DNA from: Escherichia virus TH47
DNA length: 64,000 nt
Sequence record: MT446416.1
Direction: 5' to 3' (one strand)
Below the pieces are notes generated by a model. That model ran no database searches. It was given only the letters and a program-made list of their open reading frames with translations, and was not told the origin of the DNA. Made by a program: the position numbers and the translations under genes. Numbering within the stretch: the first letter of the stretch is position 1; each line of letters begins with the position of its first letter. Shown in pieces: positions 556 to 64,000 of the stretch.

Positions 556-628
556 TTCATCTCCTTTGAATATGCATTATAATGAGGGCAACTAATGTAC
601 CCTCATTCTTATACATTGTTATTTATGA

Positions 629-2377: not shown

Positions 2378-4579
2378 TTAACTGTTTCTCTCACCTTGGG
2401 TGTTTTCAGAGATAGTTCTTAGATAATTATTTGTCTGTTGTACAGCAGATAGTGATTGTTCATTAACATCGGCAAGCTTTTTGAGTATTTCTTTCATTTC
2501 ATCAGAAATCGGTGCTGGTGGACCAGTTCTCGATGTCACTGCACTACCATTATTTATCATCTTCTTAATTGCCTCTGTATCGTCAGGTTTTGGTGGAACT
2601 GGTGGTTCACCTGGTGCCCATGCAGTTTTATCAAAATCTTTACGAGATACAGTTATTTCTGGAGCAACGTTATTTGTTTTTTCAATAACAGGGCGAATGC
2701 GTTCTACACCTGGACGGTTGAATAAACTGTCAGCATAGTCAGATGGTAGTGGTGCTGGTTCTTTGTAGTTACGTGCGGTGTTCCATTTATTGAACTTATC
2801 CCACATTCCTGCAAAATAATCACTAACACTATTTACTCCATTGTCAATGATGCTGTTTACGCTTTCTGCTGGGGTTTCAGTACTGTTATTGAGTTTTATC
2901 TCATTATCAGAACCACCACCGAACCAACTTTTAACAGAATTCCATAGGTTACCAGGTAAATCCATTAAGTTATTCATAAAGGTATCAAATGCTTCTGACA
3001 CTTTAGTGTAACCTGAACCGAATATATCTGCACCCAATCCATCCAACCAAGCTGTAAATTCAGCACCAATACGATCAAGGTAAGCAATTGCATCTTTAGC
3101 AATAGGTACTAACCCAAATCCATCAAGAGCCAATTCCCCAATAAACTCCCATGCACCATCAGTTCTGTCTGCAATGTCAGAAAGATAATCCACAATTGAA
3201 TTTTGTGTATTAGCATACATTATATTAAATGGTTCAGTGAATTCTTTACTAATCCACATATTGAAGCGGTTGGTAAATTGAGTTAATTTATCAGCCGGAT
3301 TATTTTGTGCAGCATTGAATCTGGATTCTGCGGCTAGAAGTTCTTTAATTGCAGCAGCAGAAGCAGCCCCTTCAGAACCACGTTGTTGTTGATAATACAA
3401 CTCCATTTCCAATTCACTTTTATTCTTCTTGGTATATTCCATTATTTTGCGTTGTAAATCAACGGAACTGGTCCCAGATCTAACAAGTTCAGAAACGTAA
3501 TTACTAAGATCGAACAATTCAGGAGCTAATATATCATCAGGAAGTGCTCCAGTTGTGATTTTGGAGTTTACTATGCTTAGAAGTTTTGGTCCAAAGTCAC
3601 CCATTGCTGCGGAAGCTTCAACTATATTCTTTGCCGCAGTTGCTGCTGCATCAGAAGTTAGTCCACCTACATGTTCAAGTGATATTGCAATTGATTTTGC
3701 GTCAAGTGAATCATCAAGAGAACTAGTTTTATTCAACAGTGAATCTACCGACTCACCCATTGCTTTACTGAAAGTGGTTATTGTTTTTATAAATTGTTCA
3801 GTACTGCGTTCTTGGTTAGAACGCTGTAGTAATTCTTTACCACCCAATATTTTTTGAACTTTAATATTCCTAGCAGTGAGATCAATTAGTGTTTTTTGAG
3901 ATATGCCATATAAACCAAGTTCTTTCTGTGCAAGTTGGACATTACCAACTAAGTTTGCGAATGCCATTGTTCCATCGCCATACAACGCACCCAACTGGTT
4001 TACTGCTTGGGCATGAACTGACACTGCCTCAGAAAACTGATCAACACTCATCATCGCTGCACCAGCACCTTTCAGTACTGAACCATAACCTTCAGCCAAT
4101 GCAACACCAGCACTGTTAATTCTGGTGTATACTTCCAATTGTGCATTAAGGGCATTGTATACAGCAAGACCAGCACCAGTAACGAGTTTAAATGCTGCTG
4201 CCGCTGCACCAATTGGACCTGGCATCATTGCTAATGAACCAGCAAATGAGGATGCACTAACGCCTAATGAGTTTACTACAGTACTTACGTTGTTACTGGA
4301 GTTCATCATTGTTTTGCTTACATTAGAAACTTCAGAAGATAGTGATTTGAACAATTTACCAAATGCTTTCCCGTCATCGGCTTGTGCACTTCCACGAGTT
4401 CCACGATTACTGGAAGAACTGGAACTGGAACCATTCTTTTTACTATTTGAACCTGATTTTTTCTTATCATTCTTTATATTTTCAGCTAATAACTCACGGA
4501 TAGCAGTCAAACTATCATTGTTATCTTTAGTTTGATTAACCAACTGCTGTAGTAGGTAATCACTTGTATTGACAGCCAT
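2378..4579 (-). CDS. Large Ala/Gly/Ser-rich virion protein, tape-measure-like (function uncertain)
   Basis: ORF track start (4777) trimmed to ATG at 4579 with AAGGGA RBS; 733 aa, poly-Ser tract, long Ala/Gly-rich helical low-complexity segments typical of tape-measure/ejection proteins; immediately upstream of portal. Confidence 0.4.
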   Translation of the reverse strand: MAVNTSDYLLQQLVNQTKDNNDSLTAIRELLAENIKNDKKKSGSNSKKNGSSSSSSSNRGTRGSAQADDGKAFGKLFKSLSSEVSNVSKTMMNSSNNVSTVVNSLGVSASSFAGSLAMMPGPIGAAAAAFKLVTGAGLAVYNALNAQLEVYTRINSAGVALAEGYGSVLKGAGAAMMSVDQFSEAVSVHAQAVNQLGALYGDGTMAFANLVGNVQLAQKELGLYGISQKTLIDLTARNIKVQKILGGKELLQRSNQERSTEQFIKTITTFSKAMGESVDSLLNKTSSLDDSLDAKSIAISLEHVGGLTSDAAATAAKNIVEASAAMGDFGPKLLSIVNSKITTGALPDDILAPELFDLSNYVSELVRSGTSSVDLQRKIMEYTKKNKSELEMELYYQQQRGSEGAASAAAIKELLAAESRFNAAQNNPADKLTQFTNRFNMWISKEFTEPFNIMYANTQNSIVDYLSDIADRTDGAWEFIGELALDGFGLVPIAKDAIAYLDRIGAEFTAWLDGLGADIFGSGYTKVSEAFDTFMNNLMDLPGNLWNSVKSWFGGGSDNEIKLNNSTETPAESVNSIIDNGVNSVSDYFAGMWDKFNKWNTARNYKEPAPLPSDYADSLFNRPGVERIRPVIEKTNNVAPEITVSRKDFDKTAWAPGEPPVPPKPDDTEAIKKMINNGSAVTSRTGPPAPISDEMKEILKKLADVNEQSLSAVQQTNNYLRTISENTQGERNS

Positions 4580-4611: not shown

Positions 4612-4619
4612 TATTTATG
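4612..4619 (-). promoter_or_regulatory. Candidate late-promoter -10 box (cATAAATA) for gene 2378..4579
   Basis: Minus-strand CATAAATA about 33 nt upstream of ATG 4579; same ATAAATA core recurs upstream of many structural genes; phage encodes gp55-like sigma. Confidence 0.35.
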
Positions 4620-4672: not shown

Positions 4673-4680
4673 AATAAATA
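4673..4680 (+). promoter_or_regulatory. Candidate late-promoter -10 box (AATAAATA) for gene 4716..5552
   Basis: AATAAATA 36 nt upstream of ATG 4716 in divergent intergenic region. Confidence 0.3.
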
Positions 4681-6562: not shown

Positions 6563-6570
6563 CATAAATA
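6563..6570 (+). promoter_or_regulatory. Candidate late-type promoter -10 box (cATAAATA) for gene 6601
   Basis: CATAAATA 30 nt upstream of ATG 6601. Confidence 0.3.
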
Positions 6571-6600: not shown

Positions 6601-7095
6601 ATGAAGAAAAGATTAAAAGATAGTAAAGAAGCTGCAAACTATCGAAATGAATTACTAAAGAAGCAAAAAGGAATTGATCCTATAATTAAGGAACCAATAA
6701 CTAAGCCAGTACTTGATCACTATCACTTCGAGAATCAACACTGTCGCGGGGTACTCCAGAATGAGATAAACGCCTTTGAGGGTAAGGTTTCCAACGCATG
6801 GAACCGATATGGAAAGCATTTAACTGATATGCCATTACATGAAGTACTAAGAAATCTGGCAGATTATCTTGAAAAGAACAATAACATTCCACCTGAAGAG
6901 CAAGTCATACATCACACTGCACTAACTGTGGATGTTAATAAGTTTAAAAGGCTTCCAGCAACACAGCAAAACGCGATTCTGGAAGGGTTAGGAGTTGTCC
7001 CTGGTAGTAACGTCAAGGAGAGAACTAAGCAAGCCAGAAGGCTCATTAAGGACGGTAAATTAAATATGGTAGATGTAAAAAGAGATACAAAATGA
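6601..7095 (+). CDS. Endonuclease VII-like nuclease (gp49-like His-Me finger; Zn-ligand cysteines absent)
   Basis: LDHYHFENQHCRGVLQNEINAFEG aligns by eye to remembered T4 EndoVII HLDHDHELNGPKAGKVRGLLCNLCNAAEG (D/H/H and N/E catalytic positions kept; the four Cys absent). Confidence 0.5.
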   Translation: MKKRLKDSKEAANYRNELLKKQKGIDPIIKEPITKPVLDHYHFENQHCRGVLQNEINAFEGKVSNAWNRYGKHLTDMPLHEVLRNLADYLEKNNNIPPEEQVIHHTALTVDVNKFKRLPATQQNAILEGLGVVPGSNVKERTKQARRLIKDGKLNMVDVKRDTK

Positions 7096-8114
7096 AAATA
7101 TCATTACCAAACGAAATAAACTTAAAACACATAAATTACAATACAAAAATGCCACAAGAATATTTTGATGATTTAAGTAAGAGATTATCAAAATATGACA
7201 TTATTTTTAATGGATTTATAATTGAAGATGAATGGAAAGGTAATAACACGTTAACTTCTATAGAATGTGAAGGAAACCTCTACAACAACTATCGAATTAA
7301 TAAATTATACAGATATATTAAACGTATGGATACAAAAGGATATCAGAAACCTAAAGGTTTTAACTTAACCCCTGAACTATTGGTACAAAACGTCAACGAT
7401 GAATGTATAAAACGTGGTGGTAAGATTGAATTTATTGGTTATAAACAATTTAATGGTGCAAAAACATATTTGGAATTGAAATGTAATGATTTGGAATCAC
7501 ATGATGAACCATATGAGTGGTGTTCAACGATTTATGATAGTTTTGTCGGAAACAATAGACATTTGAATGGTTGTCATAAATGTTCAGGTAGATATCATTA
7601 CACTATAGAAGAACTTAACAATAATATAAATTATTTTTGTGAAACACGTGGATTCGTAAACCCAGTATTGATAACTAATGAAACTATGAATGGTGTTAAT
7701 AGTATTGTTTCATTCACCTGTCATTGTGGTGAGAAAGCAACGATGACATATGATAGTTTATCACGTGCTCGTTTTTGTATATTATGCAGCGAAGGTAGTT
7801 ATAAACAATATATTCCTGGTTCATTGTATGTATTAGAAGTATATAAAAATGATAAACATGTGGCATATAAATTTGGTATATCAAACTATGTCCCAAAACG
7901 CCTCATGGAATATGGAAAATCTCCATGTAATGTTAAGATTATTCATCAATATGATTTTGAAGATGGTTCTATTCCATATAAAATTGAAAATAAAATAAAA
8001 AACTCATTACCAATCAGATATCTTACCAAAAATGAGTTCGGTGTAGGATATACAGAAACGATAGATACAACTTTATACGAAGATTTAATTAATATTATAA
8101 AAAAGGGAGCATAA
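7092..8114 (+). CDS. AT-rich Cys-rich protein with C-terminal GIY-YIG/T5orf172-like motif (putative homing-endonuclease-like gene)
   Basis: ATGA overlap with upstream gene; markedly lower GC than neighbours; several CxxC/HxC pairs in N-terminal half; C-terminal LYVLEVYKNDKHVAYKFGIS...PKRLMEYG resembles GIY-(10)-YIG plus conserved Arg. Confidence 0.4.
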   Translation: MKISLPNEINLKHINYNTKMPQEYFDDLSKRLSKYDIIFNGFIIEDEWKGNNTLTSIECEGNLYNNYRINKLYRYIKRMDTKGYQKPKGFNLTPELLVQNVNDECIKRGGKIEFIGYKQFNGAKTYLELKCNDLESHDEPYEWCSTIYDSFVGNNRHLNGCHKCSGRYHYTIEELNNNINYFCETRGFVNPVLITNETMNGVNSIVSFTCHCGEKATMTYDSLSRARFCILCSEGSYKQYIPGSLYVLEVYKNDKHVAYKFGISNYVPKRLMEYGKSPCNVKIIHQYDFEDGSIPYKIENKIKNSLPIRYLTKNEFGVGYTETIDTTLYEDLINIIKKGA

Positions 8115-10290: not shown

Positions 10291-11322
10291 TTATAGTGAT
10301 CTGTAAATTTGGATTAGAAGATTTTTATCGAACATAGGTGAATCAATTTCCATGATTTGTTGTAACACAATCTCATCAACTGACTCAGTACTTTCAAAGC
10401 TTTCACCATCTTCAATAAGTTCTTTGATACTTTGCTTGCTAGTAACAACGTTAAACTCACGAATGTTATAAAGTTTAGTAAAAGTATCACGAATAAAACT
10501 AATCTCATCAGTAGTGATAGCAATATCAACTTGAACCTTTGAAATAGTATTGTCTTGAAGATAGTAACTTGGATCTGTTAATAGTTCTGAAAGTGTAAAT
10601 GTTCTATATTTTGGTGCTTCTGACCAAGAATGGAAAGTTGGTTCTTTACCATGTTCTAAAATCATCACACCTCTTGCATCATCCCATGTATCAGAAAAGT
10701 TATGTGGGAAACAGTTACCTGTGTAAATTACACGAGTTCCTTTAGATGTTGTTTTTGCTTGTCTCTTGTGGAAATGTCCACTAAAAACATACTCACAACC
10801 ACCAAAAGAACCTTCAGTCTCTTTACCATGATCTGGCATCTCAACCATTTTATTGAGCAAGTATCCAGGTAACTCTAAGTGACCAAAAACATACTTACTT
10901 TTAAGTTGAGGTAGAACTTTGTATTCATCTTCAATCATAAATGGAATGAAAGTACAATCATCAAATGTTGTGATTTCATTAATGAACTCGATGTTCTCAT
11001 AAACTTGTGCCATATTAATACTAGTAATGTCACGTTTATTTTTATGATACATGTCATGGTTCCCAACTAAGAAGTAAACCTTATCGAAGTTGTCATTTAG
11101 TAATTGTAGAATTTGTAAACCATAGTTTAATGTTTGAATGTTAATATTACTGCGGTTATGGAAGTAATCTCCCATAAACACGCATACAGTAATACCATTT
11201 TTCTTAGCAAGTTCAATCATAAACTTGATGAAGTTCAAACAATCTTCGTTGTGCTGCTTGCTGTTATTCTTTAATCCTAAATGAATATCAGTAAATGTAA
11301 TTGCTTTATCAAATAGAGCCAT
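10291..11322 (-). CDS. SbcD/Mre11-like nuclease (T4 gp47-like)
   Basis: Calcineurin-like phosphoesterase motifs FTDIHLG, FMGDYFHNR, LVGNHD, SGHFH; ORF-track start 11340 is TTG, ATG at 11322 (MALFDK...) used. Confidence 0.8.
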   Translation of the reverse strand: MALFDKAITFTDIHLGLKNNSKQHNEDCLNFIKFMIELAKKNGITVCVFMGDYFHNRSNINIQTLNYGLQILQLLNDNFDKVYFLVGNHDMYHKNKRDITSINMAQVYENIEFINEITTFDDCTFIPFMIEDEYKVLPQLKSKYVFGHLELPGYLLNKMVEMPDHGKETEGSFGGCEYVFSGHFHKRQAKTTSKGTRVIYTGNCFPHNFSDTWDDARGVMILEHGKEPTFHSWSEAPKYRTFTLSELLTDPSYYLQDNTISKVQVDIAITTDEISFIRDTFTKLYNIREFNVVTSKQSIKELIEDGESFESTESVDEIVLQQIMEIDSPMFDKNLLIQIYRSL

Positions 11323-12148
11323 CTTCGTTTTTCCTTTCAATCATGTTCATTTCAATTTCGATTTGACGAGTGTGTGATGGTGTAAAACCATGCATCTCAA
11401 GTAAATCGTCTCGGATGTTACGAACATTTTTCTCACTATTAAGAATCGAACGGAAACTATTGTTAACGAACGAAGTATAGTAAGAGAAAGGATTCAACTG
11501 TACTGCTGGTTTATCTTTTTTGTAAAGAATACTCTCTTTAAAGAGAAGTGCGTTTTTAACTAATTGTATTCTGGCATCACCCATCATTTCATCCAAATAT
11601 GTATAGTTTCTATAGTTGGATTTGTGTGAGATTTCCTCTGCCAGTTTAATGAACATTTTACCTAGTTCATTAGTGATTTTACCATGAACAGTACTGAATT
11701 CTCCGTCTTCAAGATCACCTTTCCAGTGAGAACGAACAACTTCGTACAGAATACCTTCTTCATCTACAATGTAATGTTTGAATGGTTCAAAATTAACTCT
11801 TGTATCTGCTGGGATATGATCATCGGTAATTACACGAATAACCACCTCATCGATAGGTACATCAGTCAGTACTAAATTGTGCTCATCTGCGTATTCCTTC
11901 GCTTTCTTCGCACTCATACCTTCTTTTTCACGAATTGCATCAAGCATTTCATTGTTGAGACGTTTAATACGTGCTGCTTTAGCTTTATCTAAAAGTTCTG
12001 CTGTAATTTCGGATTCATCAAAAACTATATAATCATACATACTGTAGCACTTATCAAGTAACCAGCAATATGAGATTTTACTTTTTTGTATCTCACGAAG
12101 TAAATCAGCATTGTTAAGATACTTTTTACGCTTCGGCCTATTTGTCAT
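11309..12148 (-). CDS. Late-transcription sigma factor, gp55-like, with an inserted/extended N-terminal region
   Basis: ORF-track start 12250 is TTG; ATG 12148 (MTNRPKRKKYLNNADLL) has GGAGAG RBS and resembles T4 gp55 N-terminus; C-terminal ELGKMFIKLAEEISHK...NPFSYYTSFVNNSFRSIL resembles gp55 GLAIMLIAEGLSKR...NPHAYITQACFNAFVQRI (from memory). Confidence 0.6.
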   Translation of the reverse strand: MTNRPKRKKYLNNADLLREIQKSKISYCWLLDKCYSMYDYIVFDESEITAELLDKAKAARIKRLNNEMLDAIREKEGMSAKKAKEYADEHNLVLTDVPIDEVVIRVITDDHIPADTRVNFEPFKHYIVDEEGILYEVVRSHWKGDLEDGEFSTVHGKITNELGKMFIKLAEEISHKSNYRNYTYLDEMMGDARIQLVKNALLFKESILYKKDKPAVQLNPFSYYTSFVNNSFRSILNSEKNVRNIRDDLLEMHGFTPSHTRQIEIEMNMIERKNEDGSI

Positions 12149-12236
12149 TATTTCAACTCTCCATGTTTTAAATCCAATAGGTACATTCCTTGTACCATCA
12201 ATGTTATTATAGCACCAAAAACGTCTTTGTCCCACG

Positions 12237-12244
12237 TATAAATA
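12237..12244 (+). promoter_or_regulatory. Candidate T4-type late promoter (TATAAATA)
   Basis: Exact TATAAATA 36 nt upstream of ATG 12280, first gene of the plus-strand baseplate block. Confidence 0.45.
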
Positions 12245-12279
12245 CATCAAATGTTCCCTTCTTATGGAGAATCAAAAAG

Positions 12280-15605: not shown

Positions 15606-18272
15606 ATGGCAGATACAAGTAAGAAATATGCCCAACAACAGTTGGGTCGTTTTGACCCTTCGTATCCACAACTAGCAACCGTGATGGATAACCGTGACCC
15701 AACTAAATCCGGTAAGCTAAAAGTGTGGATTCAAGGTTCACAAAGTGATAAAAATTCAAAAGAGTCATGGATTGAAGCATCATACATGTCTCCATTCGCT
15801 GGTAAAACTCCAGGGATACCAAGTGCTGATGCTTATGGTCAATATCCAAAGGGATATGGTTTTTGGGCGGTTCCACCTGATGTCGGATGTACTGTTGTTG
15901 TTATATTTGCACAAGCAAGAACATTCCAAGCGTATTGGATTGGTTGTGTTTATGACCAACGTATGAATACGATGGTTCCTGGAATGGCTACTGAAATAAG
16001 CAACTATGCTGGTACTGATATGCCATTACCCGTAACTGATTATGACCGTAATACAATTTCTACCAGTACACAAGACAAATATGCAAACGTTCCAATTATT
16101 GCAGGTCTGAAAAAACAAAACTTACTTTATGATGAGGAAGCGGGTGTTGCTAACCGTAGCAGTACTCGCCAAACTACCAGTACGGTTTATGGTCTTTCAT
16201 CACCTCGTGGTAACAGTTTTATTATTGATGATGGTTACACAGAAGAAGAATTAACAGCACCTACATGGGATCAAGATCCAGATGGTTATCAGGATACACA
16301 ATTCAATAACCCAGTAAACGATACTCGCGTTGGTTCTCGTAAAAATGAAGGCGTTGTAATTAAAACACGTAGTGGTGCACAGTTGTTGTTATCTGAAGCC
16401 TCTGGTGATGTTCTTTTAATTAACCGTGATGGTACTGCACGTATTAAATTCACTGGTGAAGGTGACATTGAAATGCACTGTGATAAGAATATTAACATTC
16501 GTGCAGGACAAGATATTAACATGGTTGCTGGTCGCTCATATAATATTGAAAGTGGAGCAGACTTCAATGCTCGTGTTGGTGCAAACACTAAACTAGATTT
16601 GGTTGGTGCATTGGATGCTAAAGTTGGTGGTCAGGTTGTTATTAACGCTGGGGCAGATTTACGTTTAGTAACAGCAGCTTCATTACGTATGCAAAGTGGT
16701 AGCAGTACTGATATAACTGCTGGTTCTAATGCGTCAATCTCTGCTGCTACCAGTGCTAATCTTATTGGTTCTTCATCAGCTATTATTAGTGGTGGTGGTC
16801 AAACTCTTACTGTTAACAGTGGTGGTAATAGTGGTACTGCTGAATTTAATGCACCAAACTTCCGCACCCCATCTGCTGGCTTGAATGAACATATACATGA
16901 TATATCGGCTTGGGTTGATGCAGAGAATCACGGCAGTACTGTTGAACCTCCACGTCAAGGTGGTGGTAGTGGGAATAGTGAATCCCCAGTTCAACCTGAA
17001 CCTGCTAATGATGTAGCTCCAACTTTAGCTCCAGTACAGGACACTGAAGCAATTCAATATGTAAATTATACAACAGAAACAGAACAAGTTCAAACACAAG
17101 ATTTAATGACTTCTGATCCTGGCATGGCTGGTTATAGCATTACGTATGAAGGTCTTCATATGTTCATGCCGTGTAGTGGAACCATTCGCCAATACGGTTA
17201 TTGGGGGAAAGGTGTCCCGACTAGTGGTGGTGGTAAAGCTGATAGAAGTGGCTGGGAAATACAGTGCAAGGGTGATGTTGTAGCTCCAGATGGTGGTGTA
17301 GTTGTTATCACGAATGGTGCTTTATTGGTTCAACATAAGTCTGGATATAAATCTGTATTTTATAATATTCAATCAGATTTGCTCAATAAAGACGTTGTTC
17401 AAAAAGGACAAGTACTGGGGAAAGCTAATGGTGTTATTCAATTTGAAATAAGAGTTACCTCTGCCAACGTACTGGGATTTAGTGGTTCAGTTGACCCTGG
17501 ATTATTCTATGCATCGCAGACTGGTACAGGTTCTGAAGCGGGAAATAAAACATTAATTGCAGGACAAGCAACGAACCAAGCAGCACCGAAAGCTGTTGTT
17601 CAACCTTCTGTTGATAGTGATGAATTAGTTGTCTCCACTAAAATTAAAACCATCGGTACTGGATATTCACAACGTGGTTCTAGGCATGTCCCTCGTCGTA
17701 GAAGAACACAACGTTCAGGTGGTAGTACCGCAGCACCAACTGCACAAGAATCATACAATGTTGGTAATGTTGACAAGACGGCAATTGACTGGAAAGTTGT
17801 TCCTGGTGATTCACAATTTATTTCCGAATTGAAAGAATATGAAGGGACAATGGCGTATCAACAAGCTAAAGGATATTACCGAAATGGTAAATTCTGGAGA
17901 TATTTAGACAGTCGTGGGTTCCCAACCATTGGTTACGGACACTTGATTGTTGGTGGAGAAAACTTCTCTGGTGGTATTACCGAACAGGAAGCCAATGATA
18001 TGTTAGTTCGTGATAGTAGTAAAGCTATATATGATGCCAAATCAATCTACGCTTCTTATAAGATGAAAACACCTTACATGGCACAACAAGTCCTATGTCA
18101 AATGGTCTTCCAGATGGGTAAAGGTGGAGTAATGAAATTCAAGTCAATGCTATCTGAAATGGCGAAAGGAAACTATAAGCAAGCTGCTGCTCAAATCCGA
18201 AATTCTGCTTGGTATCGCCAAACAACTCGTCGTGCTGAATTAATGGCACGAAGATTAGAGGCATGTCAATAA
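15606..18272 (+). CDS. Baseplate central spike protein, gp5-like, with C-terminal T4-lysozyme-type (GH24) domain
   Basis: 888 aa; middle Gly/Ser/Ala-rich beta-repeat region; C-terminal EYEGTMAYQ...TIGYGH...MVFQMGKGG matches T4 lysozyme catalytic region (E, D, T positions present). Confidence 0.8.
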   Translation: MADTSKKYAQQQLGRFDPSYPQLATVMDNRDPTKSGKLKVWIQGSQSDKNSKESWIEASYMSPFAGKTPGIPSADAYGQYPKGYGFWAVPPDVGCTVVVIFAQARTFQAYWIGCVYDQRMNTMVPGMATEISNYAGTDMPLPVTDYDRNTISTSTQDKYANVPIIAGLKKQNLLYDEEAGVANRSSTRQTTSTVYGLSSPRGNSFIIDDGYTEEELTAPTWDQDPDGYQDTQFNNPVNDTRVGSRKNEGVVIKTRSGAQLLLSEASGDVLLINRDGTARIKFTGEGDIEMHCDKNINIRAGQDINMVAGRSYNIESGADFNARVGANTKLDLVGALDAKVGGQVVINAGADLRLVTAASLRMQSGSSTDITAGSNASISAATSANLIGSSSAIISGGGQTLTVNSGGNSGTAEFNAPNFRTPSAGLNEHIHDISAWVDAENHGSTVEPPRQGGGSGNSESPVQPEPANDVAPTLAPVQDTEAIQYVNYTTETEQVQTQDLMTSDPGMAGYSITYEGLHMFMPCSGTIRQYGYWGKGVPTSGGGKADRSGWEIQCKGDVVAPDGGVVVITNGALLVQHKSGYKSVFYNIQSDLLNKDVVQKGQVLGKANGVIQFEIRVTSANVLGFSGSVDPGLFYASQTGTGSEAGNKTLIAGQATNQAAPKAVVQPSVDSDELVVSTKIKTIGTGYSQRGSRHVPRRRRTQRSGGSTAAPTAQESYNVGNVDKTAIDWKVVPGDSQFISELKEYEGTMAYQQAKGYYRNGKFWRYLDSRGFPTIGYGHLIVGGENFSGGITEQEANDMLVRDSSKAIYDAKSIYASYKMKTPYMAQQVLCQMVFQMGKGGVMKFKSMLSEMAKGNYKQAAAQIRNSAWYRQTTRRAELMARRLEACQ

Positions 18273-18284
18273 ATATTTCAGTAC

Positions 18285-18292
18285 TATAAATA
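18285..18292 (+). promoter_or_regulatory. Candidate T4-type late promoter (TATAAATA) for lysozyme gene
   Basis: Exact TATAAATA 18 nt upstream of ATG 18310; second AATAAATA at 18268..18275. Confidence 0.4.
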
Positions 18293-19246: not shown

Positions 19247-19279
19247 ATAAATATTTCTATATAATTCATGGAGTGATGT

Positions 19280-19987
19280 ATGAAAAGTTATTATGGTTTC
19301 ATTTATCAATGGGAAGATAGCACCAATGGTATAAAATACATAGGTTCTCATTATGGAGCAACAGATGACAATTATGTGTCATCTAATGTTATAGTTAATA
19401 GAATTTATAAGGGAAGACCACAGGATTTATCAAGAACAGTTTTAGAATATATTATAGTTGATGATAAGAAATTTTTATTGGAGAGAGAACAAAAATACTT
19501 AGATTTGATATTACCCTCTGAATTGTACACGAGTTTAAACAGAAAAAATAAAACCGTGAAATATTACAACATGAAAAGGAATGCATGTGGTGGTAACGGT
19601 GGTGTAGGAAGTAATGGTATGTTGAAAAATAAAATAAAATATTTTAACAAACATACATTTGAACAAAAATTCTTTAGTAGTACTGACATTATACCAGATG
19701 ATTGGGTTAAAGGTGTACCATCCTCAAAGGTTAGCTGTACTGGAAGCACTTGGTATCTGAATATCAAAACTGGGGAAAATAAAAGATTTAAGAATAATCC
19801 AGGTATTGAATGGATTGAAGGTAAACGTAATATTTCAACAACACCAAAAAAAGTAAACACTCCGTATGGAATTTTTGAAAGTGCATCTGAATGTGGTAGA
19901 CAGACTGGGATAAAACAAGCAACTGTAACGTTTAGGTGTCGTTCAAAATCATCTAATATGGCAAATTGGTTTTATATAGAGGAATAA
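19280..19987 (+). CDS. GIY-YIG homing endonuclease (Seg-like)
   Basis: N-terminal YGFIYQWEDSTNGIKYIGS is a canonical GIY-X10-YIG motif with downstream conserved Arg and Glu; low GC; inserted between conserved baseplate genes. Confidence 0.8.
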   Translation: MKSYYGFIYQWEDSTNGIKYIGSHYGATDDNYVSSNVIVNRIYKGRPQDLSRTVLEYIIVDDKKFLLEREQKYLDLILPSELYTSLNRKNKTVKYYNMKRNACGGNGGVGSNGMLKNKIKYFNKHTFEQKFFSSTDIIPDDWVKGVPSSKVSCTGSTWYLNIKTGENKRFKNNPGIEWIEGKRNISTTPKKVNTPYGIFESASECGRQTGIKQATVTFRCRSKSSNMANWFYIEE

Positions 19988-23488: not shown

Positions 23489-23496
23489 CATAAATA
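23489..23496 (+). promoter_or_regulatory. Candidate late promoter -10 box (cATAAATA) for giant gene
   Basis: CATAAATA 37 nt upstream of ATG 23533. Confidence 0.35.
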
Positions 23497-35823: not shown

Positions 35824-35861
35824 GTATTCTCCTAAATGAGTAGTCACTCTAATTAATAAAC

Positions 35862-35889
35862 ATTATATCACATTCTTTGCGTTTGTCAA
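35862..35889 (-). promoter_or_regulatory. Near-consensus sigma70-type promoter (TTGACA-N16-TGaTATAAT) for ClpA-like gene
   Basis: Minus strand reads gTTGACAaacgcaaagaatgtgaTATAATg; about 30 nt upstream of ATG 35823; same motif recurs twice at 59336-59457. Confidence 0.5.
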
Positions 35890-35931
35890 CAAGGTAAATA
35901 AAGATATACCCGATTTATTTTGGAGACAAAC

Positions 35932-37428
35932 ATGACATACAGAATGTGGAAAAAAGGTAGAACCAATGATTACAAGTTCATTGACTCTGCCATAGCAGAA
36001 CAATACAACATCGGTGGTGTTGACATGTGGCTTTATGCCTATGTCGGACCAAAACAAGTCGCTGATAACACTGATTTATCATATGGCGGTGATTATTATG
36101 GTTCAGATAGTACCGTTGTGTCAAGCATTGGTGATTTAATTTTTGGTGACACTCCAAGTCGTAACTATAATCTCGAAGCTATCACCTTAAGTTGCGTCTA
36201 CCAAGTCCAAGAAGCAACTCCTGACTTGAAAATCCCAGGATTGTTCTTCAACTTTAACACTATGGACATCACAATTCATTATAACACAATGATTCAGCGT
36301 TTGGGAAGAAAAATTATGCCAGGTGACGTAATCGAACTCCCTAACTTACGTGATTTTGATGTACTTGGTAAAGATTCTGGTTTAAATCGCTTCTATGTAG
36401 TACAAGATGGGTTTAGAACATCAGAAGGTTACTCAGTTACATGGCAACATCACATTTACAAACTCCGTGTTAAACCTCTTACTGATTCACCAGAGTATTC
36501 AGACCTTCTAGGTAACAATAACTACCCTGATGACCCAGATGAACCAAACAACGGCAATGGTAATACTGATGATGGCTCTTCAGAGAACAGCAGCTATGGT
36601 AATGAAATGGACATTATGAACCGTATCATTATGCAAGCTGATGATGAAGTACCATACATTCATTTTACTAACGAACACTTGTTCGATGACAGACCAGATA
36701 CCGTTGATTTGTCTAAGTATATGCTAAATGGATACGAATTACCAGAGGAACCAGCAAATAAAATGTATTTCCTCAAGAAAACTTACCCAGTACTGAAAGA
36801 ACTATCTAATGATACATGGATTTCTGTAGAAGTCAAGCGTGGAACAATCTTTCCTCGCAAACCGATGGATGGTGACTTCTTCTTTAAAGAAAACGAGGCT
36901 GATGTCACTGGCTTCTCATTGTATCAATACGATAAATCTGCCAAAAAGTGGCTAAATTGTGATGTTGAGTATACTACAGAAAGCACACCACCACAAGGGG
37001 TTGATGATTTTTATATTGAATACAAAGAACCACACATTTATCAGTACTTAAATGGTAAATGGGGAGAACCAGAAGTAACTTACGTTAATGACCCATTCAC
37101 TTCTAATAGTGTTTATGGAAATATCGATTCACAACAAGATTATCGTCCTAAGATTCCTCCAGCACGAGGTACAGTTCCTGAAGGTAATATGTTCCCAAGT
37201 GATGCAGTTGATGGTGATTACTACTATCGTACCGATTATACACCAGTAACCCTATGGGAATACAGTGCATCCAAGAATTCTTGGGTGATTTTCGATTACG
37301 GTGGTAGAAAACCGTGGGAAGGTGCAGATCTTGCTCTAACAGAATTTGTTAATAGCCCGAACCGTGTACCATTACATGATGCAGTTAAACCTAATACAGC
37401 GTATCGTATACATAAGGATTCAGAATGA
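35932..37428 (+). CDS. Putative neck/virion protein (gp13/gp14-like position)
   Basis: ORF-track start 35920 is TTG; ATG 35932 with GGAGA RBS; directly upstream of and overlapping gp15-like gene. Confidence 0.35.
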   Translation: MTYRMWKKGRTNDYKFIDSAIAEQYNIGGVDMWLYAYVGPKQVADNTDLSYGGDYYGSDSTVVSSIGDLIFGDTPSRNYNLEAITLSCVYQVQEATPDLKIPGLFFNFNTMDITIHYNTMIQRLGRKIMPGDVIELPNLRDFDVLGKDSGLNRFYVVQDGFRTSEGYSVTWQHHIYKLRVKPLTDSPEYSDLLGNNNYPDDPDEPNNGNGNTDDGSSENSSYGNEMDIMNRIIMQADDEVPYIHFTNEHLFDDRPDTVDLSKYMLNGYELPEEPANKMYFLKKTYPVLKELSNDTWISVEVKRGTIFPRKPMDGDFFFKENEADVTGFSLYQYDKSAKKWLNCDVEYTTESTPPQGVDDFYIEYKEPHIYQYLNGKWGEPEVTYVNDPFTSNSVYGNIDSQQDYRPKIPPARGTVPEGNMFPSDAVDGDYYYRTDYTPVTLWEYSASKNSWVIFDYGGRKPWEGADLALTEFVNSPNRVPLHDAVKPNTAYRIHKDSE

Positions 37429-41507: not shown

Positions 41508-41573
41508 TGTTAAGCCCTTTTAGTAGTGAACTTTCATTTATTTATTAATGGCAACGAAATGTATTTTGTACTG

Positions 41574-41580
41574 ATAAATA
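41574..41580 (+). promoter_or_regulatory. Candidate late promoter -10 box (gATAAATA) for tail-fibre locus
   Basis: ATAAATA 37 nt upstream of ATG 41617. Confidence 0.35.
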
Positions 41581-51788: not shown

Positions 51789-51795
51789 ATAAATA
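51789..51795 (+). promoter_or_regulatory. Candidate late promoter -10 box (aATAAATA)
   Basis: ATAAATA 35 nt upstream of ATG 51830. Confidence 0.3.
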
Positions 51796-63336: not shown

Positions 63337-63870
63337 TCAATCCTTTTTACCAAAACCAGCACTCATATATTGAGAGTATTTATTGTCACTTTTAACTGCT
63401 TCAATCGCATCTTTAACTGCGGTTACAGCACGTTCTTCACCAGCTAAATCATGGCTGTCTTCTGGTTTGCCAAAATCAACACCAATTACTGGTTCGTAAT
63501 CGTCAAAGTCAATATCATCTTCGAGTTCGGTCATTTCTTGTTGACGTGGTTCATCTTTACTACGTACACGGATTAGAGCTTCAGTCATACTTAGTAGGTT
63601 ACCAATTTCATACATTAGTACGTTTGATTGAACACCACGGTGGCATTTGAAATCAAACATCCAAATTTCACCACAATCTAATTCATAAAAATCTAGTGGT
63701 TTTTCCATGAAAATAGTTTTCTTGAGTGCCCCAATATCAAATGCATCATAACGATCCATTAGGCGTTGTGATACTTTACTAAGTTGTTCGTTAGTAGGTT
63801 CAACTGCAAACTTGACTCGGTATTCAAAAACTGGTTTTTTATCTGTTAGGATTTGTTGTAATCTATTCAT
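63337..63870 (-). CDS. Hypothetical protein
   Basis: 177-aa ORF with GGAG RBS. Confidence 0.4.
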   Translation of the reverse strand: MNRLQQILTDKKPVFEYRVKFAVEPTNEQLSKVSQRLMDRYDAFDIGALKKTIFMEKPLDFYELDCGEIWMFDFKCHRGVQSNVLMYEIGNLLSMTEALIRVRSKDEPRQQEMTELEDDIDFDDYEPVIGVDFGKPEDSHDLAGEERAVTAVKDAIEAVKSDNKYSQYMSAGFGKKD

Positions 63871-63897: not shown

Positions 63898-64000
63898 TTA
63901 TTTATTTCTGTTCATTGCTGCAAGCATTTCATTGCGGGTTTTATGTGCTACCGCCTGTCCTTCGATGGCTGTTGGGTCACCAACTGGTTCAACTTTCTTA
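63898..64000 (-). CDS. Partial CDS (C-terminal end; gene starts beyond window)
   Basis: Open minus-strand frame from window edge to TAA at 63900..63898 (...AIEGQAVAHKTRNEMLAAMNRNK*). Confidence 0.3.
   Translation of the reverse strand, partial: KKVEPVGDPTAIEGQAVAHKTRNEMLAAMNRNK

Follow-up and report, generated by a model that had tools for sequence, protein, structure and literature searches.

What switches on the virion genes of a jumbo phage that infects Escherichia coli? The question is raised by a stretch of 64,000 nucleotides from Escherichia virus TH47 (sequence record MT446416.1), the whole of which we call the window. A sequence-only reading had noted there a gene for a gp55-like late sigma factor with an inserted region, together with a recurring ATAAATA motif, and took them as signs of T4-type late transcription. 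The window is 99.6-99.7% identical to Asteriusvirus coliphages (121Q/RaK2-like; ~350-380 kb), and in these near-identical phages the gene is annotated as "sigma factor for late transcription." The homology of the protein to gp55, the placement of the motif, and its conservation support the proposal. Hence, it is very probable that a gp55-type sigma factor and ATAAATA promoters together form the T4-type late-transcription switch of this 121Q/RaK2-like jumbo coliphage.

The limits of the gene must be settled before its product can be compared with T4 gp55. The open reading frame runs from 11309 to 12250 on the minus strand, with a TTG start and 313 aa. The true coding sequence is most likely shorter, starting at the ATG at 12148 and encoding a protein of 279 aa that begins MTNRPKRKKYLNN. 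This start is favored because homologs are 275-290 aa long, because the annotation of the relative vB_Ec-M-J also has 279 aa, and because a sigma70-type promoter (Table 1) sits downstream of the longer annotated start. Position 12244, previously given as the end of the gene, is the end of the TATAAATA motif and no gene boundary. The protein had been estimated to be about 90 aa longer than T4 gp55, which agrees with the difference of 94 aa that we obtain (279 versus 185 aa). The last 14 nt of the coding sequence overlap the start of a gp47/SbcD-like gene, and the gene order 55-47-46 is that of T4, where the gp55 gene also lies upstream of the gp47/gp46 nuclease genes. The -10 hexamer of the gene's own promoter is kept in four other genera. 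On promoters in general, the RNA-seq paper on PA5oct reported sigma70-like promoters only.

Profile comparisons confirm the protein as a homolog of T4 gp55 in two separate blocks, one N-terminal and one forming the core. It matches PHROG 12791, the long-form "sigma factor for late transcription," with E = 3.9e-152 (residues 3-277 cover positions 2-284 of the 286 in the profile), and the T4-type phrog_234 with E = 1e-16. The profile of its family reaches T4 gp55 in the PDB (7d7c_F) in two pieces (E = 6e-14), and the profile-profile comparison by hhalign gives a probability of 99.1% (E = 8e-19). T4 gp55 was reached in the PDB only by the family profile, since the single-sequence phmmer search returned chance-level matches to PTS enzyme I only. 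No sigma70 region model of Pfam (Sigma70_r2 or others, including regions 3/4) matched even at E <= 1, and the sole sub-threshold match was irrelevant. The AlphaFold2 model of the 279-aa protein has a mean pLDDT of 96.6 and a pTM of 0.88. In Foldseek searches, the whole chain had no significant match in the PDB (the best relevant one was SigA of M. smegmatis, probability 0.6), while in BFVD it matched gp55-type sigmas of T4-like phages, through the gp55-type core only. The identification as a gp55-like late sigma factor, made initially from the letters of this DNA, is thus borne out by PHROG, the PDB profile match, hhalign, and Foldseek.

The residues conserved in the two blocks include functional residues of T4 gp55. 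An HMM restricted to residues 1-30 of short T4-like gp55s matches the first ~20 residues of 115 of the 126 long-form members, and its top match among all 1923 ORFs of one relative's genome is the gp55-like ORF. In the alignment, Y10, N12, N13, L16, L17, I20, and K24 are identical to T4 gp55 at the same residue numbers. In T4, the -10 pocket is made by N13, L54, R57, F86, H95, Y97, and T99, and N13 lines the pocket of the flipped base A-9 (PMC7892883). Four of these seven residues are identical here and conserved in the family (N13, F86, Y97, and T99 are N13, F203, Y223, and T225), and three are changed (R57 to K, H95 to F, and L54 to I). Helices H1-H4 of T4 gp55 resemble sigma region 2, and its acidic residues E70, D74, and E77 contact the beta-prime clamp helices (PMC7892883). 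The equivalents of E70 and D74 are kept (DEM..GD), and the position of E77 is occupied by I. The core helices of the model span residues 160-174, 185-198, 205-209, 220-252, and 259-276, of which the last two (pLDDT > 90) match the helix-loop-helix of T4, i.e., the long H4 and H5.

The second component of the switch is the DNA motif. There are 15 ATAAATA sites in the window, and 14 of them lie at most 100 nt upstream of a gene start on the same strand, in oriented zones that make up 3.7% of the two strands. This placement (binomial p = 1.2e-19) ranks first among all 16,384 7-mers. Twelve of the 14 upstream sites are 17-43 nt from the start codon, mostly 26-36 nt, and of the remaining two, one is 64 nt away and the other 6 nt, before a doubtful start codon. 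The motif is not over-represented in total. It is rarer than 7-mers of the same composition, and no more than 2 of its sites are entirely within coding DNA, whereas the 20 other 7-mers with five A and two T have 22.8 such sites on average in the window. One of the sites in coding DNA, at 2551-2557, is doubtful as a promoter. Many sites follow immediately on what looks like the terminator of the transcription unit before them. At the 14 sites, the base that precedes the motif (A6 C4 G2 T2) shows no conservation. The conserved element is therefore ATAAATA, with 7 bp as in cyanophages, instead of the 8-mer of T4. The free first base is consistent with the flipped bases -12, -9, and -8 all lying inside ATAAATA.

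Table 1. Features of the putative late-transcription system in the 64,000-nucleotide window; distances run from the motif to the start codon of the downstream gene.
Feature	Position	Strand	Context
gp55-like late sigma factor CDS	11309..12148	-	279 aa; stop codon 11309-11311 included
Sigma-region-2-like core and helix-loop-helix, aa 142-279	11312..11725	-	aligns to T4 gp55 residues 21-122
Inserted alpha/beta module, aa 26-141 (~115 residues)	11726..12073	-	between N-terminal block and core
N-terminal block, aa 9-25 (KYLNNADLLREIQKSKI)	12074..12124	-	predicted helix 13-25; homologous to T4 gp55 residues 8-24
Sigma70-type promoter of the gp55-like gene	12206..12233	-	GGGACA-16-TATAAT, TG upstream of -10
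ATAAATA	620..626	-	64 nt before small gene (start codon 555), downstream of portal gene
ATAAATA	2551..2557	-	in coding DNA; 185 nt before portal gene start; kept in vB_Ec-M-J
ATAAATA	4612..4618	-	32 nt before start codon 4579 (annotated as tape measure or virion protein); divergent partner of 4674
ATAAATA	4674..4680	+	35 nt before gene 4716 (baseplate hub by a relative's annotation)
ATAAATA	6564..6570	+	30 nt before endonuclease VII (gp49-like) gene 6601
ATAAATA core	12238..12244	+	35 nt before ATG 12280, virion/baseplate operon
Two ATAAATA cores, 18269-18275 and 18286-18292	18269..18292	+	34 and 17 nt before baseplate hub gene 18310
ATAAATA	19247..19253	+	right after terminator-like hairpin; 26 nt before ORF 19280
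ATAAATA	23490..23496	+	after terminator-like hairpin; before gene of 3332-aa virion protein
ATAAATA	41539..41545	-	31 nt before virion protein gene, start codon 41507
ATAAATA	41574..41580	+	36 nt before tail protein gene 41617
ATAAATA	51789..51795	+	after terminator-like hairpin; 34 nt before gene 51830
ATAAATA	63377..63383	-	within coding sequence of upstream gene; 43 nt before start codon 63333
ATAAATA	63899..63905	-	28 nt before virion protein gene, start codon 63870

This pattern extends beyond the window. We scanned 350 kb of vB_Ec-M-J (OQ718158, up to the last 28 kb, which are largely terminal repeat) and found 50 ATAAATA sites, versus 131-239 for composition-matched words. About 36 of the 50 precede a gene start, mostly of virion genes, including those of the major capsid, tail sheath, and tail tube proteins, and only 3 fall in the first 100 kb, which hold early genes. 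The motif is kept across four genera while the flanking sequence diverges. For example, the site at 12238 is kept in EJP2, pEa_SNUABM_12, and KP13-7 between diverged flanks, and in relatives the site at 19247 lies directly before the baseplate wedge gene. The enrichment upstream of genes on which the sequence-only reading had staked its proposal is thus present in the window, in the 350 kb of the relative, and in the conservation across genera. The exact TATAAATA occurs at 12237 and 18285 and nowhere else in the window, as that reading stated, and its variants all contain ATAAATA, 4612 being the low coordinate of a minus-strand site. Its list lacked six sites (18269 on the plus strand; 41545, 63905, 63383, 626, and 2557 on the minus strand), and its spacing of 18-40 nt becomes 17-43 nt, with the two exceptions given above.

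How could such a system work? With transcription from the gene's own sigma70-type promoter, the 279-aa protein would appear earlier in infection, and it would displace the host sigma on the E. coli core RNA polymerase, contacting the beta-prime clamp helices via its sigma-region-2-like core. The minimal promoter that it reads would be a single 7-bp ATAAATA at about -12 to -6, without a -35 element, and recognition would involve the non-template-strand adenines -12, -9, and -8, flipped into pockets of the protein as in T4 gp55. Transcription would start ~6 nt downstream of the motif, leaving leaders of ~10-40 nt that are predicted to precede the operons for virion, baseplate, tail, and head. 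Because such a promoter would have only 7 bp, ATAAATA may have been purged from coding DNA and from early regions. Selective avoidance of this kind is expected of a self-sufficient promoter, not of a composition effect.

One could argue instead that ATAAATA is read by another sigma factor, either the host sigma70 or a phage RpoD-like protein, and that the gp55-like protein does something else or plays an accessory part. After all, the genome of a relative has a gene for an RpoD-like sigma factor (EcMJ_505), and the motif is AT-rich and resembles a -10 box. However, ATAAATA is a poor fit to TATAAT in every register, no -35-like positions are conserved among the 14 sites, and the clear two-hexamer sigma70-type promoters found elsewhere in the window, before non-structural genes, look different. 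The motif is also the core of the gp55 promoters of T4 and cyanophages, and this protein keeps the residues with which T4 gp55 holds the flipped adenines. We therefore regard a reading by another sigma factor as improbable. It is even less likely that ATAAATA is no promoter at all, being another intergenic signal (for termination, processing, or translation) or a by-product of AT-rich composition. Several sites do come right after terminator-like hairpins and T-runs, in intergenic DNA that is AT-rich. Still, A/T-only 7-mers have 9.6% of all their occurrences in upstream zones, versus 14 of 15 for ATAAATA, and no other 7-mer comes near. The strand of the motif matches that of the downstream gene, including in the back-to-back divergent pairs 4612/4674 and 41545/41574, the narrow spacing to the ATG places it upstream of the ribosome-binding site, and the word is avoided in coding DNA and early regions.

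The gp55-type switch that we favor leaves the extra length of the protein to be accounted for. The N-terminal HMM match and the core alignment flank the extra sequence, in keeping with its earlier placement between N- and C-terminal conserved blocks. The net gain of 94 aa combines a gain of ~115 aa in the insert with a loss at the C-terminal tail, which is shorter than in T4 and lacks the T4 clamp-binding motif. In the AlphaFold2 model, the inserted module has strands at residues 40-42, 104-107, 123-128, and 134-139 and helices at 50-76 and 80-89. F120 and S140 are invariant across the family, and R105, H111, P113, P122, F123, H125, V137, and H141, all at least 90% conserved, are among its most conserved residues. 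Metagenomes contain more than 1000 clusters of long-form gp55s at 50% identity, all with the conserved alpha/beta module. By the model and the family alignment, the module is folded and strongly conserved. Foldseek found no structural match for it outside the family in the PDB or BFVD, and in the literature we found no description of a gp55 insert or of a missing clamp-binding tail in these phages.

Could the module have nothing to do with transcription and be a mobile or accessory insertion, such as the remnant of an intein or homing element, or a fused gp33-like co-activator? True inteins do occur in this gene in relatives, and the helical part of the module (aa ~43-95) varies in length and is missing from short members. 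Yet an identity as an intein or mobile insert is rejected in view of the conserved residues that the module carries, of its modeling as a single compact body with the core (pLDDT ~97), and of the inteins of the relatives, which sit after Y182 and have other signatures; a fused gp33 is rejected in view of an hhalign probability of 0.1% against T4 gp33 and of the secondary structure, gp33 being all-helical and the module having four strands. Overall, we give such an accessory origin very little chance. The sigma70 of bacteria has a non-conserved region between regions 1.2 and 2.1. The likeness of the module to it seems one of position only, both being lineage-specific insertions that would separate the first two helices of the region-2 domain, and no similarity in sequence or fold was found between them (Pfam; Foldseek against the PDB). 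The module would buttress the -10 pocket and add contacts to RNA polymerase or DNA. These extra contacts may make up for the missing T4-style clamp-binding tail.

The comparison with T4 shows how far the two systems agree. T4 gp55 (7D7C/7D7D, PMC7892883) has a homologous core and helix-loop-helix and a homologous N-terminal Y-x-N-N block, and its promoters likewise consist of one -10-like element, with ATAAATA as its core and without a -35 element, and are placed before virion genes. The first T of the T4 octamer TATAAATA is not conserved here. T4 gp55 lacks the ~115-residue module and has a tail that is ~30 residues longer and includes the clamp-binding motif SLDFLY. In contrast, our protein ends at ...IERKNEDGSI, ~30 residues short of the T4 C terminus, and the alignment shows no motif of the SLDFLY type in the protein or in the family consensus. 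T4 also uses the co-activator gp33 and the sliding clamp gp45, neither of which is detectable by sequence in a relative's genome. Searches with phmmer --max matched no homolog of either among all ORFs in the 350 kb of vB_Ec-M-J, its annotation names neither, and ten candidate ORFs near its polymerase and clamp-loader genes had no clamp match in PHROGs or Pfam. PMC5259590 and PMC3622015 likewise report no gp33 or gp45, whereas gp33 orthologs and PCNA-type clamps are stated to be present in group 2 jumbo phages (PMC7824862). Given the missing tail and the lack of sequence-detectable gp33 and gp45, the activation mechanism of T4 is not simply transferable. We can thus imagine, as a speculation that we hold to be unlikely, that long-form gp55s are a separate mechanistic class, in which the module itself makes the contacts to RNA polymerase or DNA for which T4 relies on gp33 and the clamp, and late transcription is clamp-independent and not coupled to replication in the manner of T4. 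If the module did replace clamp-dependent activation, this would change the textbook view of gp55-type late transcription as coupled to replication via the sliding clamp.

Parts of this system have precedents in other phages. For vB_PcaM_CBB and GAP32, RaK2-like members of the same phage group, both the motif and a gp55-like gene have already been published, as has the failure to detect gp33 and gp45. PMC5259590 describes for them the ATAAATA consensus upstream of structural genes (35 sites in CBB) and a gp55-like gene beside gp47/gp46 homologs, both as found here, and proposes the same role for the motif from a MEME prediction; the accessible part of the article gives no statistics on placement or avoidance, does not analyze how the protein is built, and does not mention the insert, the pocket residues, or the missing clamp tail. 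The late promoter of cyanomyoviruses is NATAAATA (PMC2984593), so that their g55 system shares the 7-bp core and likewise leaves the first position free. Their sigma core is detectably similar to ours (tblastn matches over aa ~124-260). The cyanophage genes are similar only to the C-terminal half of our protein (aa ~116-260), and these phages have recognizable g33 and g45 (PMC2984593). T4, cyanophages, and 350-kb jumbo phages would thus all use the gp55 type of sigma factor, for which 7 bp of promoter suffice, with the same DNA word. For the annotation of therapy-relevant giant coliphages, the motif provides a reliable map of putative late units, with ~14 in the window and ~36 in the genome.

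The gp55-like gene and the ATAAATA motif are best explained by a late transcriptional switch of the T4 type. The gp55-like sigma would be made from a sigma70-type promoter, bind core RNA polymerase through its region-2-like core and open promoters consisting of ATAAATA alone, placed at about -12 to -6, with transcription beginning about 6 nt downstream of the motif. The pairing of sigma and motif is a rediscovery, since the system was already known for this phage clade. For the RaK2-like phage CBB, Buttimer et al. 2017 (PMC5259590) describe 35 locations at which a MEME consensus, ATAAATA, precedes structural genes; they report the motif in GAP32, point out its resemblance to the T4 late promoter, and place a gp55-like sigma next to gp47/gp46 homologues. 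A related late promoter, NATAAATA, was published for cyanomyoviruses (PMC2984593).

The phage itself is closely related to known ones. The window has 33-41% G+C. Several Escherichia phages of 350-385 kb in the genus Asteriusvirus (Ecwhy_1, EC.P1, WPEC3, fEgEco12 and vB_Ec-M-J), which are 121Q/PBECO4/RaK2-like jumbo myoviruses, share 99.6-99.7% identity with it across the 5 kb tested. Their records label the ORF "sigma factor for late transcription" or "RNA polymerase sigma factor." PHROG, profile, profile-profile and Foldseek matches all point to the gp55 type, so that the observation made in the sequence-only reading is confirmed and its interpretation supported. Along its whole length the protein fits PHROG 12791 (E = 4e-152), and residues 128-262 fit the T4-type family phrog_234 (E = 1e-16). 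Pfam has no model for the protein, and a PDB search with the single sequence gave no match. A family profile built from 126 long-form members, i.e., gp55-like proteins carrying the insert (alignment A1), matched T4 gp55 in the cryo-EM structure 7D7C (E = 6e-14). Profile-profile comparison with 34 short T4-like gp55s aligned residues 140-248 with T4 residues 21-122 (probability 99.1%). The AlphaFold2 model (pLDDT 96.6, pTM 0.88) matched, among viral models in Foldseek, the gp55-type late sigma factors of T4-like phages (Delftia PhiW-14, Klebsiella KPV15, Stenotrophomonas Moby and Campylobacter CP20) over ~95-130 columns.

The motif is strongly tied to gene starts. ATAAATA occurs 15 times, counting the two strands of the window together; among the other 7-mers composed of five A and two T (range 15-36), only TAAATAA is as rare (also 15). 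Fourteen of the ATAAATA sites are followed within 100 nt by a same-strand gene start. Such upstream zones make up 3.7% of the two-strand sequence; this is the best placement among all 16,384 7-mers (binomial p 1.2e-19), and A/T-only 7-mers as a class have 9.6% of their copies there. The proposed enrichment upstream of genes thus holds against chance. The exact TATAAATA reported at 12237 and 18285 was found there and nowhere else in the window. The spacing of 18-40 nt to gene starts stood for most sites (17-43 nt to the ATG at 12 of the 14) and failed for the other two. The base just before the motif varies (A6 C4 G2 T2), and these sites show no conserved position further upstream; the element is therefore a 7-mer, without a -35 element. 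Only two copies fall wholly inside coding DNA (mean 22.8, minimum 6, for composition-matched words), and this rarity outside promoters fits an element sufficient by itself. Several sites lie directly 3' of a terminator-like hairpin, and two intergenic regions have back-to-back divergent sites. One-mismatch variants (see the table) may be weaker late promoters.

The same pattern was found in relatives. In the 350 kb of vB_Ec-M-J (OQ718158), ATAAATA occurs 50 times, versus 131-239 for most composition-matched words, with 3 copies in the first 100 kb, where genes are small and of early type, and 32 between 100 and 250 kb. Thirty-four sites are within 100 nt of starts from the ORF caller (~36 when the record's annotation is added), mostly before genes annotated as virion proteins; the genes preceded by the motif include those for major capsid, tail sheath, tail tube, baseplate hub and wedge, tail fibre and endonuclease VII. 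The site at 12238 is kept in EJP2 (Asteriusvirus), pEa_SNUABM_12 (Eneladusvirus) and KP13-7 (Alcyoneusvirus), with diverged flanks. In the tRNA cluster of OQ718158 (291376, 294696), the motif also precedes tRNA-Ser(tga) by 40 nt and tRNA-Thr(tgt) by 67 nt, and some phage tRNAs may therefore be transcribed late.

The gene most likely starts at the ATG at 12148, giving 279 aa, rather than at the TTG of the 313-aa open frame (11309..12250, minus strand). This start agrees with homologues of 275-290 aa that share the opening sequence M-x-x-(K/R)-rich-KYLNN, with the annotation in vB_Ec-M-J (exactly 279 aa), and with the predicted sigma70-type promoter, which falls downstream of the TTG and whose -10 hexamer is unchanged in four other genera. 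The protein would then exceed T4 gp55 (185 aa) by 94 aa, in line with the earlier estimate of about 90. Next on the minus strand come SbcD/gp47-like and SbcC/gp46-like nuclease genes, giving the 55-47-46 order of T4; the gene diverges from the plus-strand baseplate/virion block, an arrangement retained as far as the distant Pseudomonas phage Paride. The last 14 nt of the gene (11309-11322) also form the beginning of the gp47/SbcD-like gene, which suggests that late sigma and recombination nuclease are co-transcribed and translationally coupled.

Features of the window and of the gp55-like protein
Feature	Position	Strand	Detail
Sigma70-type promoter (predicted), gp55-like gene	12233..12206	-	GGGACA, 16 nt, TATAAT, upstream TG
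Divergent regulatory region	~35860-35900, intergenic 35824-35931	both
Near-consensus sigma70 promoter (predicted)	~35860-35900	-	TTGACA, 16 nt, TATAAT, upstream TG; before 762-aa ATP-dependent protease gene
One-mismatch variant GTAAATA	31 nt before virion/tail-sheath operon at 35932	+	typical spacing
One-mismatch variant CTAAATA	before gene with start codon at 236
One-mismatch variant CTAAATA	about 75 nt before 45933
Insert strands (AlphaFold2)	aa 40-42, 104-107, 123-128, 134-139
Insert helices (AlphaFold2)	aa 50-76, 80-89

T4 gp55 flips the non-template adenines -12, -9 and -8 into pockets formed by N13, L54, R57, F86, H95, Y97 and T99; E70, D74 and E77 contact the beta-prime clamp helices, and the long H4 forms a helix-loop-helix with H5 (PMC7892883). 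All three flipped bases fall inside ATAAATA. By alignment, N13, F203, Y223 and T225 of the gp55-like protein are identical to T4 pocket residues, and the family consensus retains these positions (≥90% for F203 and T225), whereas R57 is changed to K, H95 to F and L54 to I. The equivalents of E70 and D74 are retained, but not that of E77, and helices 220-252 and 259-276 of the model are the counterpart of the helix-loop-helix.

The extra sequence between the conserved blocks, also noted earlier, amounts to ~115 residues (roughly aa 26-141). The 126-member profile matches T4 gp55 in two pieces, positions 10-35 to T4 3-28 and 151-242 to T4 24-117. The first is weak alone and was tested separately with an HMM of only the first 30 residues of short T4-like gp55s. 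This HMM matched the first ~20 residues of 115 of the 126 members (best E = 1e-6) and, among all 1923 ORFs of the relative's genome, ranked the gp55-like ORF first (E = 0.002; second, 0.23). Without gaps, Y10, N12, N13, L16, L17, I20 and K24 are identical to T4 gp55 at the same residue numbers. The insert is thus flanked by two gp55-homologous blocks. In the model it packs with the remainder of the protein at pLDDT ~97. The length of its helical part (aa ~43-95) differs between members, and the shortest ones (214-245 aa) lack this part. The strand-rich portion has some of the family's most conserved residues: F120 and S140 are invariant in the 126-member alignment, and R105, H111, P113, P122, F123, H125, V137, H141 and W142 are conserved at ≥90%. 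This conservation argues that the insert is functional, with an inferred role in supporting the N13 pocket and contributing RNA polymerase or DNA contacts. Placed after helix H1 and before the following helix of the region-2-like fold, it would by analogy correspond topologically to the non-conserved region of primary sigma factors. Foldseek against PDB and viral models found no structural relative of the module outside the family, and comparison with gp33 revealed no relationship, ruling out that origin.

The C terminus is ~30 residues shorter than that of T4 gp55 and lacks its clamp-binding motif SLDFLY. This combination of conserved insert and lost tail is the uncharacterised detail; no description of either was found in the CBB, RaK2, PA5oct and jumbo-phage comparative papers or by full-text search. 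The architecture recurs throughout a large family from metagenomes (1122 clusters at E ≤ 1e-3, 185 at E ≤ 1e-30). No sliding clamp or gp33 was seen in the vB_Ec-M-J annotation (1-350 kb) or in PHROGs and Pfam scans of ten candidate ORFs, and phmmer at maximum sensitivity with T4 gp45 and gp33 matched none of its ORFs; clamp-loader homologues are present. The CBB paper reports gp33 and gp45 as not detected (PMC5259590), and gp45 and gp62 were likewise not found in RaK2. Iyer et al. 2021 (PMC7824862) state that gp33 orthologues and PCNA-type clamps are general in "group 2" jumbo phages. That the insert makes late transcription clamp-independent seems to us rather unlikely.

In at least nine metagenomic relatives (P0126, P0141, P0153, P0192, P0222, P0227, P0231, P0235 and P0238), an insertion of 145-311 aa comes immediately after the conserved ..NWRGY. 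The insertion starts C[VF]D..TEALT, ends ..TGN and has T or S as the next residue, a pattern that reads as an intein signature in which the penultimate Gly is non-canonical. The equivalent place in the window is ~11603/11602, between codons Y182 and T183, within the segment bearing the R57-equivalent pocket residue; the gp55-like gene of the window lacks an intein. Pfam intein/LAGLIDADG hints were weak and came from a different long member, P0246.

The phage probably uses two phage-encoded sigma factors in sequence, since a 322-aa RpoD-like factor is encoded in the early/middle region outside the window (OQ718158 306232-307200), and CBB also has an RpoD-like sigma and a second promoter class, TGAAACG plus TATA (PMC5259590). 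Also outside the window, at least 14 paralogous genes of ~370-390 aa, annotated "regulator of chromosome condensation" (RCC1-like), stand in tandem on the minus strand of OQ718158 at 333-350 kb.

Two plus-strand ORFs of the window probably encode mobile endonucleases. The 340-aa ORF at 7092-8114, directly after the endonuclease VII gene and missing from WPEC3 (~1 kb indel), is likely a mobile endonuclease given its match to MUG113/T5orf172 (GIY-YIG-related). The 235-aa ORF at 19280-19987, missing from WPEC3 and vB_Ec-M-J (~680-bp indel), lies between the ATAAATA site at 19247 and a baseplate wedge gene; its weak match to the I-TevI DNA-binding domain points to a probable free-standing homing endonuclease, whose gene now comes first after the motif.
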